Of a stretch of DNA of 24,301 bases, positions 6,051-10,832 are shown piece after piece. Origin of the DNA: a virus; UHGV virus genome UHGV-1420800, one strand, 5' to 3'. The position numbers were made by a program, and so were the translations under genes. The notes beneath the pieces were generated by a model. It worked only from the letters and a program-made list of their open reading frames with translations. It searched no databases and was not told where the DNA came from. Within the stretch, counting starts at the first letter, position 1; every line of letters begins with the position of its first letter.

Positions 6051-6079
6051 CCCCTTATTGTGGGTAAGACATGAAGATG
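6051..6079 (+). promoter_or_regulatory. S-gene translational control region (sdi-like hairpin plus dual starts Met1/Met3)
   Basis: CCCCTTATTGTGGGTAAGACATGAAGATG. The two in-frame ATGs at 6071 and 6077, separated by a Lys codon, are the lambda S107/S105 arrangement. Confidence 0.6.
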
Positions 6080-6394
6080 CCAGAAAAACATGACCTGTTA
6101 GCCGCCATTCTCGCGGCAAAGGAACAAGGCATCGGGGCAATCCTTGCGTTTGCAATGGCGTACCTTCGCGGCAGATATAATGGCGGTGCGTTTACAAAAA
6201 CAGTAATCGACGCAACGATGTGCGCCATTATCGCCTGGTTCATTCGTGACCTTCTCGACTTCGCCGGACTAAGTAGCAATCTCGCTTATATAACGAGCGT
6301 GTTCATCGGCTACATCGGTACTGACTCGATTGGTTCGCTTATCAAACGCTTCGCTGCTAAAAAAGCCGGAGTAGAAGATGGTGGAAATCAATAA
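6071..6394 (+). CDS. S: Holin/antiholin, lambda S type (class I, three TMDs)
   Basis: 107 aa, [41 protein letters not shown]..., essentially lambda S as I remember it. Confidence 0.95.
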
Positions 6395-6854
6395 TCAACG
6401 TAAGGCGTTCCTCGATATGCTGGCGTGGTCAGAGGGAACTGATAACGGACGACAGAAAACCAGAAATCATGGTTATGACGTCATTGTTGGCGGAGAGCTA
6501 TTCACTGATTACTCCGATCACCCTCGCAAACTTGTCACGCTAAACCAAAAACTCAAATCAACAGCAGCCGGGCGCTATCAGCTTCTTTCCCGTTGGTGGG
6601 ATGCCTACCGTAAGCAGCTTGGCCTGAAAGACTTCTCTCCCAAAAGTCAGGACGCTGTTGCGCTGCAGCAGATTAAGGAACGTGGCGCTTTGCCGATGAT
6701 TGATCGCGGTGATATCCGTCAGGCAATCGACCGTTGCAGCAATATCTGGGCTTCACTGCCGGGTGCTGGTTATGGTCAGTTTGAGCATAAGGCTGATAGC
6801 CTGATTGCAAAATTCAAAGAAGCAGGCGGAACGGTCAGAGAGATTGAAGTATGA
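6378..6854 (+). CDS. R: Endolysin, lambda R-type lytic transglycosylase
   Basis: 158 aa, [39 protein letters not shown]..., near-identical to lambda R as I remember it. It overlaps the 3' end of S, as in lambda. Confidence 0.95.
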
Positions 6855-7318
6855 GTAGAGTAACCGCGATTATCTCTGCTCTGGTTATCTGCATCATCAT
6901 CTGTCTGTCATGGGCTGTTAATCATTACCGTGATAACGCTATCGCCTACAAAGAGCAGCGCGATAACAAGGCCAGTGAACTGGAGAAGGCGAACGCCACC
7001 ATTACTGACATGCAGCAGCGCCAGCGTGATGCTGATGCACTCGATGCTAAATACACGAAGGAGTTAGCTGATGCGAAAGCTGAAAATGATGCTCTTCGGC
7101 GCAAGCTTGATAATGGTGGCAGGGTGCTCGTCAAAGGAAAATGCCCTGTGCCATCCTCAGACGAAACCTCCAGCGCCTCCGGCATGGGCAATGATGCCAC
7201 CGTCGAACTCTCTCCAGTTGCTGGACGAAACGTTCTCGGTGTCCGGGACGGAATTATCCGCGACCAAACAGCACTGAGAACGCTTCAGGAATACATCAGG
7301 ACGCAATGCCTTCGATGA
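6851..7318 (+). CDS. Rz: i-spanin Rz (inner-membrane subunit)
   Basis: N-terminal TMD ([18 protein letters not shown]), coiled-coil periplasmic domain, and an ATGA overlap with the R stop. The N-terminal ~83 aa are lambda-like and the C-terminal part differs. Confidence 0.9.
7071..7277 (+). CDS. Rz1: o-spanin Rz1 (outer-membrane lipoprotein), embedded in the +1 frame of Rz
   Basis: AAGGAG lies 7 nt upstream of ATG 7071. The signal peptide has the lipobox VAGC (Cys19) and the mature part is proline-rich (KPPAPPAW), as in lambda Rz1. Confidence 0.85.
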
Positions 7319-7452
7319 TAGCGATAATTCTACTCATCATCCTTCACATCTGGCTCTGTAGACAGGGTGGTGATCACTTCTGGAGTGAATCCAGATTAAA
7401 CATCTCATTGCTGATGCTTGAAGTTGAGCATCTGGCGCGCGGTAAGGGGCTG
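7315..7452 (+). CDS. 45-aa hypothetical small membrane protein ([19 protein letters not shown]...)
   Basis: ATG 7315 overlaps the Rz stop (ATGA). It has a hydrophobic N-terminal segment and is below the ORF-track cutoff. There is no other support. Confidence 0.25.
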
Positions 7453-7758
7453 CGTTGAGATAAGAGCCAGTTCATTACAAATCCTATCTACGGGTGGGCT
7501 TGATAATGAAACCGGAGTTAATTTCTGGTCACTAATTAACGGCAGTACAGCGAAACAACCCAAGCCAGTAAGCGGGGAAATAACACTGGCAGCCACTGAA
7601 AGATGAACCTCCTGCCTTATGGCAAAAAAGATTCTTTGTGGTGGCGGACTGATGGAAAGACATCGGATAGAATCAAGCAGTGGCTAGGGTAGTTCCCGAA
7701 AAGCGGACTCGTCACCGCCTGCCACTGAATCTATGGCGAACAACTAGACGAGGTTGTG

Positions 7759-7974
7759 ATGGATGATAACGGAAACCAATGGATCAATGTTGAACACCGG
7801 CTACCAGAAAGCAAAGAAGGGATGTGGTCTAAAGAGGTTATAGCTCTTACTGATACTGGTGACGTGTTCAAACTATCATGTATGGGCTCTTACTGGCAGA
7901 GAACCAAGGCATTCATCGATTCAGGAGCAAGCAAGGTTACACACTGGATGCCGCTTAATTACCCAGATGATTAA
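7759..7974 (+). CDS. DUF551-domain protein
   Basis: The sequence has the W.NVEHRLPE...VIALTD.G...W...VTHWMPL pattern typical of DUF551. ATG 7759 has GAGG 5 nt upstream. Confidence 0.8.
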   Translation: MDDNGNQWINVEHRLPESKEGMWSKEVIALTDTGDVFKLSCMGSYWQRTKAFIDSGASKVTHWMPLNYPDD

Positions 7975-7991
7975 AACGGATGAAAAATGAA

Positions 7992-8016
7992 AGGTCGCTC
8001 AGGCGGCCTTTTTTAT
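7992..8016 (+). terminator. Rho-independent terminator after the DUF551 gene
   Basis: AGGTCGC (7992-7998) pairs with GCGGCCT (8003-8009), giving 7 bp including one G-U pair. The loop is TCAG and TTTTTTATT follows. Confidence 0.75.
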
Positions 8017-8121
8017 TGCCATCACAAAAGCCATTCCCTACAGAGTGGCTTTGATAATGGCTTATACCCTACACGGGATAACTTAACTGATATCCCTTTT
8101 AACGGATAAACTGAGCCAACA

Positions 8122-8364
8122 ATGGCAGAGATTATTCCCATGACTGAAGAACAGAAATTCCAGTTAGAGATTTACAAGCTGGTCATGAACCAGAACGCAG
8201 CCGCAGAAGAAGCATTTCAATTCATTGGCACTGACGAACTGAAGCTTGAGCTATTCAAAATTCACTTCCAGTCAGGCGGCGCTAATTCAGATATCACGAC
8301 CCGCACTATCGAAGCGGTGCGTAAATCGAAGGAAGCGTTAGACCTGTTCACCACCGGAGTGTAA
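8122..8364 (+). CDS. Hypothetical acidic helical protein, 80 aa
   Basis: Clean ATG ORF, tightly packed with the next gene (3-nt gap). It may correspond to P22 'ORF80' by size and position; this is memory only. Confidence 0.6.
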   Translation: MAEIIPMTEEQKFQLEIYKLVMNQNAAAEEAFQFIGTDELKLELFKIHFQSGGANSDITTRTIEAVRKSKEALDLFTTGV

Positions 8365-8367
8365 GAG

Positions 8368-8655
8368 ATGACTGAACAAGAAATGCCGAGATACCAGTGC
8401 CACAAAAAAGTTCGCGCCCTGAAGATTGGCTCTATAGAACATAAGCCAAACCCAGATCAGTCTGGTAAGACTGGCTCTTCTAGTTATGGGGCAATTATTC
8501 ATCCGGATGATAAGAAATACGCAGCATTTGATGTTAGCGCGGAATATATCTGTAAGCACCGACCAATGTCTGGAGGCTATTACGTTGTCTATGAGGATGG
8601 ATATGAATCATATTCTCCTGCTGAGGTATTTGAGTCTGGATATTCAAAATTATAG
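8368..8655 (+). CDS. Hypothetical protein, 95 aa (YQCHKKV...GGYYVVYEDGYESYSPAEVFESGY)
   Basis: ATG ORF with a GGAG-containing upstream sequence. The C-terminal YEDGY.S.SPAE.FE.GY motif recurs in many phage proteins of unknown function. Confidence 0.65.
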   Translation: MTEQEMPRYQCHKKVRALKIGSIEHKPNPDQSGKTGSSSYGAIIHPDDKKYAAFDVSAEYICKHRPMSGGYYVVYEDGYESYSPAEVFESGYSKL

Positions 8656-8664
8656 GAACCCTCT

Positions 8665-8844
8665 ATGACAAGCGTCGTTGATCTTGGTAAGGAGAAGAAA
8701 TTCCCAATTACTCAAGAGCTATACGAGCGGCTTGAAAGCGTCATCCATGATTACGATGGTGAAATCAGTTTATGCGAGGCGATTGGCGCACTCGAATTGC
8801 TGAAGCAGTCACTGATTGAAGGCGCGAAAGAGTCCTTAACCTGA
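8665..8844 (+). CDS. Hypothetical acidic protein, 59 aa
   Basis: ATG 8665 to TGA 8842-8844, encoding MTSVVDLGKEKKFPITQELYERLESVIHDYDGEISLCEAIGALELLKQSLIEGAKESLT. It is below the ORF-track cutoff and fills the gap before terS. Its size and position resemble P22 'ORF59a'; this is memory only. Confidence 0.5.
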   Translation: MTSVVDLGKEKKFPITQELYERLESVIHDYDGEISLCEAIGALELLKQSLIEGAKESLT

Positions 8845-8866
8845 ATAACGATTAAGTGAGATGAAT

Positions 8867-9355
8867 ATGGCAGCACCAAAGGGCAACCGATTTTGGGAGG
8901 CCCGCAGTAGTCATGGGCGAAACCCTAAATTCGAATCGCCTGAGGCGCTGTGGGCTGCTTGTTGTGAATACTTCGAGTGGGTTGAAGCTAACCCGCTATG
9001 GGAGATGAAGGCGTTCTCGTATCAGGGTGAAGTGATACAAGAGCCTATCGCCAAGATGCGAGCGATGACCATTACCGGCCTCACTCTGTTCATTGATGTG
9101 ACGCTTGAAACATGGCGCACATATCGCCTGCGAGAAGATTTATCTGAAGTCGTTACGCGAGCAGAGCAGGTCATCTACGACCAGAAATTCTCTGGCGCAG
9201 CCGCTGACCTTCTCAACGCTAACATCATCGCCCGTGATTTGGGCCTCAAAGAGCAGTCGCAAGTTGAAGACGTGACACCTGATAAGGGAGATCGCGATAA
9301 GCGACGCTCTCGTATCAAGGAGCTATTCAACCGTGGAACTGGACGCGATTCTTGA
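8867..9355 (+). CDS. 3: Terminase small subunit (P22 gp3)
   Basis: 162 aa beginning [48 protein letters not shown], near-identical to P22 gp3 as I remember it. It contains the pac sequence. Confidence 0.93.
9134..9155 (+). promoter_or_regulatory. pac: P22-type pac site (packaging initiation recognition sequence) inside gene 3
   Basis: GAAGATTTATCTGAAGTCGTTA reads at 9134-9155. It matches the 22-bp P22 pac site as I recall it and is at the expected position within gene 3. Confidence 0.65.
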
Positions 9356-10832
9356 TAACCTGAGCGACGAAGAGCAAATCGAATTGCTCGAGCTACTCGA
9401 AGAAGAAGAAAACTACCGGAACACACACCTGCTATATGAATTTACGCCATACAGCAAACAGCGTGAGTTCATCGACGCCGGGCATGACTATCCAGAGCGC
9501 TGCTTTATGGCTGGTAACCAGCTTGGTAAGTCATTTACTGGTGCTGCTGAAGTCGCGTTTCACCTTACCGGGCGTTATCCGGGAACAAAAGGCTATCCGG
9601 CTGATGGTAAATATGGCGGGGAGTGGAAAGGTAAGCGTTTCTATGAGCCTGTTGTCTTCTGGATTGGTGGCGAGACAAACGAGACTGTAACCAAAACGAC
9701 TCAACGCATCCTGTGCGGTCGTATTGAAGAGAATGATGAGCCTGGCTACGGTTCCATACCGAAAGAGGACATCATTAGCTGGAAGAAGTCTCCTTTCTTT
9801 CCGAACCTTGTTGATCATCTTCTGGTTAAGCATCACACGGCTGATGGCGTTGAAGATGGCATTTCAATCTGCTACTTCAAACCATACTCGCAAGGCCGCG
9901 CTCGCTGGCAGGGTGACACAATCCACGGCGTGTGGTTTGACGAAGAGCCACCATACAGCATTTATGGCGAAGGCCTTACCCGTACCAACAAATACGGGCA
10001 ATTCTCAATTCTGACGTTTACCCCGCTGATGGGGATGTCTGACGTTGTTACCAAGTTCCTGAAGAATCCCAGCAAGTCGCAGAAAGTGGTCAACATGACC
10101 ATCTATGACGCTGAGCACTATACCGACGAGCAGAAAGAGCAAATCATCGCATCCTATCCAGAGCATGAGAGAGAGGCTCGAGCTCGAGGTATTCCTACGA
10201 TGGGTAGTGGTCGAATCTTCCAGATACCGGAAGAGACGATTAAGTGTCAGCCGTTCGAGTGTCCTGATCACTTCTACGTAATTGGCGGTATGGATTTCGG
10301 ATGGGATCACCCACAAGCGCAGGTTCAGCTTTGGTGGGATAAGGACGCAGACACAATCTACGTTTCACGCGTGTGGAAGGCGAAAGAAAAAACAGCCGTT
10401 CAGGCATGGGGAGCGGTTAAATCATGGGCGCATAAAGTGCCAACAGCATGGCCTCATGACGGAAACCAGCATGAGAAGGGCGGCGGTGAGCAGCTCAAAG
10501 GGCAGTATGCAGACGCTGGTTTTATGATGTTGCAGGAGCATGCGACATGGCCTGATGGCGGTAATGCTGTGGAGCCTGGCATCACTGAATTGCGCGACAT
10601 GATGCTCGATGGTCGCTTCAAAGTATTCAACACCTGTGAGCCATTCTTTGAGGAGTTCCGCCTCTATCACCGTGATGAAAACGGGAAGATCGTCAAGCTT
10701 AACGACGACGTTCTCTCAGCCGTTCGCTATGCATACATGATGCGCCGCTTCGCAAAAATGATGCGCGACATCAAAAAACCAAAAGAGAAAAAGATACCAG
10801 CCCCAATCAGGCCCATCGCACGGAGAACTTAA
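9333..10832 (+). CDS. 2: Terminase large subunit (P22 gp2)
   Basis: 499 aa with Walker A-like GNQLGKS, WFDEEP (Walker B region) and a C-terminal nuclease domain. The GTG start overlaps gene 3 by 23 nt, as in P22. Confidence 0.93.

Follow-up and report, generated by a model that had tools for sequence, protein, structure and literature searches.

What is encoded by the roughly 440 bp (positions 7315-7755) that follow the spanin genes Rz and Rz1 in the viral genome UHGV-1420800, of which a stretch of 24,301 nucleotides (the window) was analysed? The initial annotation, made from the sequence without database searches, found no convincing gene there and left four readings side by side: a frameshift-decayed gene, a set of coupled micro-proteins, a bor-like moron on the minus strand, and a non-coding RNA. 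Comparison with related phages and prophages suggests that this apparently gene-less stretch is probably a mosaic joint at which exchangeable modules of a P22-like prophage's late operon meet. The joint would consist of four pieces: a small open reading frame coupled to Rz (ORF1, 7306-7458); an empty accessory-gene slot (7473-7540); a conserved core (7541-7664), which in most relatives is continuous with the leader of the DUF2560-terminase gene cluster; and a leader (7665-7758) that would form the 5' part of an accessory module and contains a -10-like box, the three-way-junction RNA known as int-alpA, and the ribosome-binding site of a DUF551 gene. The coordinates of these and neighbouring features are given in Table 1.

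Mosaic structure of the stretch

The window represents the late region of a P22-like (Lederbergvirus-type) prophage. Comparison by blastn with annotated relatives places the right limit of the left module—the end of Rz together with ORF1—at about 7482, and in seven relatives the breakpoints lie at 7482 on the left and at either 7473 or 7529 on the right. The interval that follows ORF1 begins with CATTACAAAT (7473-7482), continues with a hairpin at about 7483-7498, and is the unoccupied form of a cassette slot. Relatives carry in it rha (P22 and E. coli), a GIY-YIG nuclease gene (epsilon34 and E. coli), a KilA-N gene (HK97 and BIS08P22), or a gene labelled 'anti-CRISPR' (phage Huey), and a canonical terminator lies directly 3' of CATTACAAAT in the cassette-bearing relatives; the slot is unoccupied in the window, in Sf6 and in 611R6.

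The exact arrangement of the window was found in 19 complete E. coli genomes and in none of the isolated phages of the collection searched, and parts of the stretch are present in 2,490 of 5,426 complete E. coli genomes. As a separate observation, the Huey cassette is bordered by near-identical copies of CAT(T/C)ACAAA (at about 1390-1398 and 1968-1976 of its sequence), of which the window holds a single copy at 7473-7482; such copies could be the mark of an insertion, or of a deletion via short-repeat recombination.

The conserved core and its insertion point

The core is near-invariant in 13 reference sequences, which include P22, Sf6, epsilon34, HK97, Huey, BIS08P22 and E. coli prophages, and likewise in 128 copies from viral contigs. 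It is common to P22-like and HK97-like phages and stands always upstream of the DUF2560 and terminase genes. Among 70 distinct sequences that have the DUF2560 leader joined directly to the core, nucleotide diversity amounts to 0.027 in the core, 0.084 in the leader, 0.36 in the left flank and 0.32 in the gene for DUF2560, with values of 0.28-0.36 for its individual codon positions. Conservation of the core extends to all codon positions, and the reading frames that pass through it end in C-termini that vary with the flanking module. Because the reference alignment has insertions and deletions inside the core whose lengths are not multiples of three, and because the frames through it acquire stops and lose their ATG codons (see below), the core is best read as non-coding, which is the only one of the four initial readings left standing for 7541-7664.

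At least five unrelated right-hand sequences start exactly after the terminal GACATC, and DUF2560 and terS then follow in the same orientation. The flank is the DUF2560 leader itself in 79 of 133 loci; further flanks are of the Sf6 gp66 type, contain an ORF of 62 amino acids, belong to one uncharacterised type or, as in the window, consist of the int-alpA/DUF551 module, and P22 has at the same point orf25 and the minus-strand pid moron. Accessory modules are evidently tolerated only immediately after the last base of the core, and in Shimwellia the core has a left boundary that is just as sharp. From the contrast with its neighbours and the single-base insertion point we infer that the core acts in cis, either on the late transcript or on the DNA of the packaging cluster.

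In most phages the DUF2560 leader follows the core directly. Its hairpin (fold z = -3.4) shows paired changes in the basal four pairs relative to the common allele (GAGA/UCUC to AAAG/CUUU). The uninterrupted block of core and leader has a plus-strand fold z of -4.8 against shuffles, a signal of which much appears to come from the leader hairpin. One pair of this hairpin is G-U versus A-U among 75 relatives (41 versus 32), a difference that fits a plus-strand RNA only.

Copies of the core come from enterobacterial phages only and are at least about 90% identical. A search for divergent copies in 185,579 species genomes returned only 9 matches, all about 97% identical or higher. Six contigs from metagenome-assembled genomes assigned to Cellvibrionaceae, Nanosynbacter, Bacillota and Collinsella carry the core, again at about 97% identity or higher, and are probably mis-binned phage contigs.

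Other identities for the core were considered and set aside. No Rfam family reaches threshold within it, and a partial match to 'Proteo-phage-1' (16.8 bits against a threshold of 42, in a search with E up to 10) was treated as chance. STnc6030 and the other non-coding RNAs of prophage BTP1 do not correspond to it, STnc6030 lying in the tailspike region and none of the listed RNAs covering the core. Nor is it the promoter or transcript of pid, a minus-strand gene whose transcript terminates some 100 bp beyond the right edge of the core.

The int-alpA RNA and its loop-complementary sites

The suggestion of a non-coding RNA is borne out most directly in the last 80 bp of the stretch, which contain a full-length match to the int-alpA family; it covers all 71 positions of the model (1-71) and scores 42.3 bits, the gathering score being 35.8. 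Its E-value is 5e-7 in a search of 1.4 kb and 8.5e-6 over the whole window, in which no other Rfam family exceeds its threshold. In the model alignment the window copy has a three-way junction with the conserved joining bases CUAG, CGAAAAG and CCUG, and the minimum-free-energy fold of the window sequence returns the same three helices. Compensatory changes occur at 8 of the 14 pairs in 27 diverse sequences, with 5-9 pair types at P1 positions; P3 was fixed by the search pattern and is thus uninformative in this count. The RNA is present in every relative that has the DUF551 module and in none that lacks it, and a pattern scan of viral contigs yielded 74 further loci.

The initial annotation had noted several of these bases, with other partners. 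In place of the long-range pairing it suggested, within the int-alpA fold GCGG (7703-7706) is the local partner of CCGCC (7715-7719), and GTGG (7680-7683) is the partner of CCAC (7722-7725). The short repeats that it listed do exist, GCCACTGAA at 7592-7600 and 7721-7729 and GCGGACT at 7644-7650 and 7703-7709, at a frequency expected by chance (p = 0.35, 0.20 and 0.30 for repeated 7-, 8- and 9-mers in 7315-7755 against mononucleotide shuffles). The GCCACTGAA repeat had given rise to the idea of a second, decayed int-alpA copy at 7543-7601; it was rejected, the k-mers being at chance level and the best local similarity between 7541-7606 and 7670-7740 marginal (p ~0.025).

The loop of P3 is complementary to two sites downstream of it. 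Bases UCGUCA (7709-7714) pair with site 1, and bases CUCGUC (7708-7713) form six Watson-Crick pairs with site 2, which overlaps the Shine-Dalgarno sequence GAGG (7750-7753) located 5 nt before the ATG at 7759. In 18 families with differing loops, loop-complementary sites are found at about -25 to -31 (site 1) and -11 to -17 nt (site 2) from the start codon. Each site pairs better with the loop of its own family than with those of other families, at -6.3 versus -2.8 kcal/mol for site 1 (p = 6e-6; paired Wilcoxon 1e-3) and -7.3 versus -4.3 kcal/mol for site 2 (p = 1e-7; paired Wilcoxon 7e-5).

Of about 40 distinct int-alpA elements, all except two are followed by a same-strand ORF that starts 15-69 nt past the motif; in the two exceptions only an ORF of 50 amino acids with a TTG start, 104 nt away, was found. 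The genes in this position are unrelated to one another, and encode Rha, a P22-type portal, a Dam methylase, HTH_36, HNH nucleases, a primase-polymerase (PrimPol) and DUF551. The window's motif, together with the leader up to the start codon, recurs at 77-91% identity in BIS08P22, Tyrion, GF-2 and a Klebsiella phage, and precedes a different gene or gene version in each.

Family membership, structure, covariation of loop and sites, and the constant position before an ORF can all be read from the sequences themselves. Because the P3 loop covaries with two downstream sites, one of them the Shine-Dalgarno sequence of the next gene, we infer that int-alpA is a cis-acting leader for translational control. 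Pairing between loop and sites would then govern translation, with CUCGUC serving as an anti-Shine-Dalgarno sequence. In the off state the loop would pair with site 2, cover the Shine-Dalgarno sequence of the DUF551 gene and block initiation; in the on state it would pair with site 1, a decoy located past the outer stem, and leave the Shine-Dalgarno sequence free. Which state is the default, and what sets the balance, would be properties of the same presumed mechanism; a putative factor that sets this balance would most likely recognise the folded junction, whose joining bases are invariant.

Further features of individual int-alpA copies may be recorded here. In BIS08P22 (1404-1760) the leader is followed by an unrelated ORF of 89 amino acids and then by the 3' part of the DUF551 gene (matching window 7780-8100), so that the leader stays with whichever gene stands first. 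Many copies from gut phages have a run of 5-8 U residues right after the outer stem, which in these copies resembles a terminator; the window copy and its enterobacterial relatives have no such run. In two other loci the outer stem begins directly after an apparent tRNA 3' end (GGTTCGAnTCC...), and the 5' end of the RNA could in some phages be made by tRNA processing.

The DUF551 module

The unit 7665-8025 has the anatomy of a moron because of its arrangement of leader, gene and terminator: int-alpA, the DUF551 gene and a predicted intrinsic terminator make up what is best described as a moron-like insert, placed exactly after the core. In relatives this module is replaced by Sf6 gp66, by P22 orf25/pid, by the 62-amino-acid ORF, or by nothing. 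The DUF551 gene starts at ATG 7759, with GAGG 5 nt upstream; the list of ORFs gives GTG 7756. In the closest E. coli relative, the annotation by PGAP (2073-2225 of that sequence) starts the gene at an internal ATG, giving 50 amino acids (window 7822-7974), and in other relatives it is annotated from the upstream ATG, with 71 amino acids. The 51 nt surrounding the terminator fold at -18.1 kcal/mol (z = -3.6).

The hexamer TAGAAT is a possible weak promoter of the module. Across the family, a -10 element with at least 5 matches is located 3-12 nt upstream of P1 in 9 of 28 int-alpA families, versus 2.6% at control positions (p = 3e-8). A promoter and terminator scan of 7000-8400 gave counts at shuffle level, the sole terminator-like site being a weak minus-strand hairpin at 7629-7608.

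Open reading frames in the stretch

That the stretch lacks a convincing gene is true of 7459-7755 but not of ORF1, an annotated ORF that recurs in relatives. The initial coordinates (7315-7452, 45 amino acids) need revision. The TGA is at 7456-7458, giving 50 amino acids from ATG 7306 or 47 from the in-frame ATG 7315, and the former, with AGGA 4 nt upstream, is the better start. Its overlap with the Rz stop was correctly noted, and its N-terminus is hydrophobic. The predicted product matches phrog_11822 over positions 1-50 of 50 (E = 8.6e-38), and the ORF is annotated as a coding sequence in E. coli prophages, Sf6, epsilon34 and 611R6. Of 33 distinct DNA versions, 32 keep the frame open and one has an internal stop, and the 56 matches contain no insertions or deletions. 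The family is limited to enterobacterial prophages, at 73% identity or more, and versions with frameshifted C-termini exist. ORF1 is plausibly a small gene, translationally coupled to Rz, and its product perhaps a small membrane peptide. At codon level, however, omega is about 0.58, versus 0.56-0.93 in the other five frames, with no excess of synonymous changes, and lacking this sign of purifying selection ORF1 may be non-coding too.

The remaining three ORFs are present as initially described: ORF2 has a TTG start and 62 codons, ORF3 has 29 codons and an ATG overlapping the ORF2 stop (ATGA, 7603-7606), and the antisense ORF has a GTG start, 63 codons and a perfect AGGAGG (7613-7608, minus strand) 11 nt upstream. 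Between ORF1 and ORF2 there is no ATGA junction but an overlap of 41 nt. On alignment to relatives the ORF1 frame stays open, and the frames of ORF2, ORF3 and the antisense ORF are not conserved; none of these three has a Pfam or PHROG match with E < 0.1. Insertions and deletions that are not multiples of three, stops and lost start codons are the grounds on which all three are judged to be excluded as genes.

Each of the coding readings can be weighed against these data. That ORF1, ORF2, ORF3 or the ORF from ATG 7619 are translated as coupled micro-proteins, the conservation of the core being that of a peptide of 21-29 amino acids, is very unlikely and would apply at most to ORF1, whose open frame and overlap with the Rz stop do favour it. 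The first 21 codons of ORF3 are likewise intact in most relatives; against this, 8 of 128 relatives have a disrupted ORF3 (seven through a stop at codon 6 and one through a frameshift), its ATG is replaced by ATA in further relatives, the ATG at 7619 is AAG in several, no Shine-Dalgarno sequence precedes 7603 or 7619, the core is conserved without regard to codon position, and ORF2 crosses the two breakpoints at 7482 and 7529. A gene such as rha destroyed by frameshifts or deletion is highly improbable as a source of the stretch. Relatives do carry the rha, GIY-YIG or KilA-N genes between 7482 and 7529, and the last rha codons extend into 7529-7540, but the window keeps only the shared 3' junction of these cassettes, and Sf6 and 611R6 have the same contiguous arrangement. 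Frames of more than 100 codons through the core are few in 133 related loci, and six of them, in the frame of ATG 7619 (118 amino acids), are read-through into the DUF2560 gene, an assignment that covers these six cases, the seven minus-strand cases not having been read one by one. Least credible is a bor-like or pid-like moron on the minus strand at 7596-7405. Its AGGAGG, although well placed, is the complement of an invariant plus-strand CCUCCU of the core, and only its first 19 codons are kept: the ORF ends after codon 19 in 47 of 113 relatives, the others having unrelated tails, and it is frameshifted in P22, 611R6 and two more. P22 carries the minus-strand gene pid in this region (PMC8835761), but tblastn with P22 Pid found no homologue in the window, and the antisense ORF has no Pfam match at E up to 1, Bor included.

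Table 1. Positions of the features in and around the stretch.
Feature	Position	Strand	Remarks
holin	6071-6394		
lysozyme	6378-6854		
Rz	6851-7318		stop 7316-7318
Rz1	7071-7277		
ORF1	7306-7458	+	50 amino acids; plausible small gene of the Sf6 gp65 / epsilon34 gp67 / phrog_11822 family; profile match, annotated relatives
ORF2	7418-7606	+	not a conserved gene
ORF3	7603-7692	+	not a conserved gene
antisense ORF	7596-7405	-	not a conserved gene
empty accessory-gene slot and junction	7473-7540		blastn breakpoints, annotated relatives
ultra-conserved core, read as non-coding	7541-7664	+	ACGGCAG...GACATC; conservation in relatives
-10-like hexamer	7668-7673	+	TAGAAT; 5 of 6 positions match; 4 nt upstream of the int-alpA outer stem
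int-alpA RNA (RF02996)	7677-7739	+	Rfam covariance-model match
int-alpA P1	7678-7684 with 7721-7727		
int-alpA P2	7687-7689 with 7695-7697		
int-alpA P3	7703-7706 with 7715-7718		loop ACUCGUCA at 7707-7714
site 1	7734-7739		UGGCGA; complementary to P3 loop; tail end of int-alpA
conserved leader with site 2	7740-7758	+	site 2: GACGAG, 7747-7752
DUF551 gene	7759-7974	+	71 amino acids; Pfam PF04448, E = 1e-9; PGAP coding sequence in relatives
predicted intrinsic terminator	7989-8018	+	stem 7989-7998 with 8003-8012, then UUUAUU
DUF2560 leader, second half of conserved block	8026-8121	+	10-bp hairpin 8027-8052
DUF2560 gene	8122-8364		
terS	8861-9355		
terL	9333-10832		

Between DUF2560 and terS the window contains ORFs at 8368-8655 (95 amino acids) and 8665-8844 (59 amino acids), which are found in one of the annotated relatives (L002) and not in the closest E. 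coli relative (L001); this region is another variable slot of the same operon.

Weighing the roles of the core and of int-alpA

In its strongest form the proposal would be a joint one: that the core is an unrecognised cis-acting element of the lambdoid late and packaging operon, and that int-alpA is a widespread phage-borne switch whose own core senses a small molecule or protein, toggles the loop between decoy and Shine-Dalgarno sequence in the manner of a riboswitch, and travels with morons. As a whole this is a long shot, and several observations weigh against the roles suggested above. The core alone folds with z of about -1.8 on either strand against shuffles; the 75 sequences of core and leader yield 1 compensatory pair in 42, too little variation to test structure, and one-sided changes in the core keep pairs about as often as they break them. 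The published transcriptome of prophage BTP1 lists no non-coding RNA over the core (supplement, PMC7067206), and the copies of the core were gathered with an exact 24-mer (21-mer in the genome scan), which inflates conservation within that word. For the covariation analysis, int-alpA families were retrieved by a pattern in which P3 and the junction were fixed, and they form a biased and not fully independent subset. No -35 element for TAGAAT is seen by eye, the core included, and a consensus promoter scan makes no call; the DUF551 module may be expressed only by late read-through.

Two rival explanations bear on these roles directly. The core could be a functionless recombination 'linker', uniform through repeated lambdoid module exchange that passes through it, and this, while unlikely, deserves serious weight: the core sits exactly between exchangeable modules with breakpoints clustered at both of its ends, its restriction to closely similar copies in enterobacterial phages fits young and often-exchanged DNA, and no RNA covariation was found in it. 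Homogenisation alone, however, leaves it unexplained that insertions are restricted to the position behind the last base and spare the interior of the core, that core diversity is more than 10-fold below that of the adjacent gene in the same genomes, and that the uninterrupted block has the plus-strand folding signal given above. As for int-alpA, it is rather improbable that it is a stand-alone trans-acting small RNA (sRNA), or a processed immunity-type RNA like P1 c4 or P4 CI, with its own promoter, ended by the outer stem, and with a loop that would target the mRNA downstream of it or related phages entering the cell. Against this, every complementary site lies in cis, on the same strand and at a distance of 5-40 nt, a geometry that favours intramolecular pairing, and the window copy and its enterobacterial relatives lack the U-run. 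Still, two points count against a cis leader: Rfam types the family as 'Gene; sRNA', and the U-run that in many families immediately follows the outer stem is compatible with a short, terminated RNA. The -10 boxes, which immediately precede the stem in a third of families, and the two elements that follow a tRNA 3' end, a processing site, point the same way.

Comparison with known systems

The int-alpA motif was described by Weinberg et al. 2017 (PMC5737381), whose main text does not mention it, and is listed in Rfam (RF02996) as an sRNA of unknown function. The window copy agrees with it in its full-length match, three-way junction and invariant joining bases, and in a 3' tail that ends at the loop-complementary segment. 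It differs in that it leads a DUF551 gene in a late operon and does not stand beside the integrase or alpA genes that give the family its name, its neighbours being Rz, ORF1, DUF551, DUF2560 and terS; in addition, the loop covaries here with the Shine-Dalgarno sequence of the downstream gene.

The moron concept reportedly comes from comparison of the HK97 and HK022 genomes. Like lambdoid morons, the module consists of one accessory gene plus a terminator of its own, and related phages either have or lack it at a precise junction that conserved genes flank. The P22 pid locus, which occupies the same slot after the core, is a minus-strand locus with a mapped promoter and a leader of 174 nt (PMC3573128, PMC8835761), whereas the moron in the window lies on the plus strand, with only a -10-like box for a promoter. 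The lambdoid mosaic boundary or linker sequences ('bsq' in the Sf6 record) resemble the core in being conserved stretches at a module boundary of otherwise different phages; the core is longer (about 125 nt, or about 230 nt with the leader), far more conserved than its flanks, and has a single-base insertion point. With lambda Bor there is agreement in position downstream of Rz only, the window having no homology to it, no lipobox and no conserved ORF.

The antisense RNAs P1/P7 c4 and P4 CI are structured RNAs encoded by the leader of the very operon under their control, with loop complementarity to two sites of that transcript, one of which covers a ribosome-binding site. The int-alpA RNA shares this layout—a leader-encoded RNA, and a loop with two sites on its own transcript, one of them over the ribosome-binding site—but has no sequence or structure similarity to these RNAs and no Rfam C4 match, and it uses one loop, not two. 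It would also be like the leaders that sequester a Shine-Dalgarno sequence (translational riboswitches and RNA thermometers), in which an anti-Shine-Dalgarno sequence competes with an alternative partner and a sensor domain lies upstream; unlike those of metabolite riboswitches, the genes downstream of int-alpA are functionally unrelated.

Significance

The int-alpA family, the ORFan family of ORF1 and the moron structure of lambdoid phages are already known. The dual-site anti-Shine-Dalgarno architecture of int-alpA may go beyond what is recorded, and the same may be true of a near-invariant core with a fixed insertion point that is common to P22, Sf6 and HK97. The analysis settles the annotation of a stretch that gene callers have handled inconsistently in thousands of E. 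coli and Salmonella prophages, and it draws attention to a block, read here as non-coding, that is near-identical in the model phages P22, Sf6, epsilon34 and HK97 and has an accessory-gene insertion point precise to a single base. The int-alpA RNA, for which no function had been proposed, gains a testable mechanism in which its loop would pair with either a decoy site or a Shine-Dalgarno sequence, and this mechanism, if true, would explain why int-alpA is positioned before unrelated phage genes.

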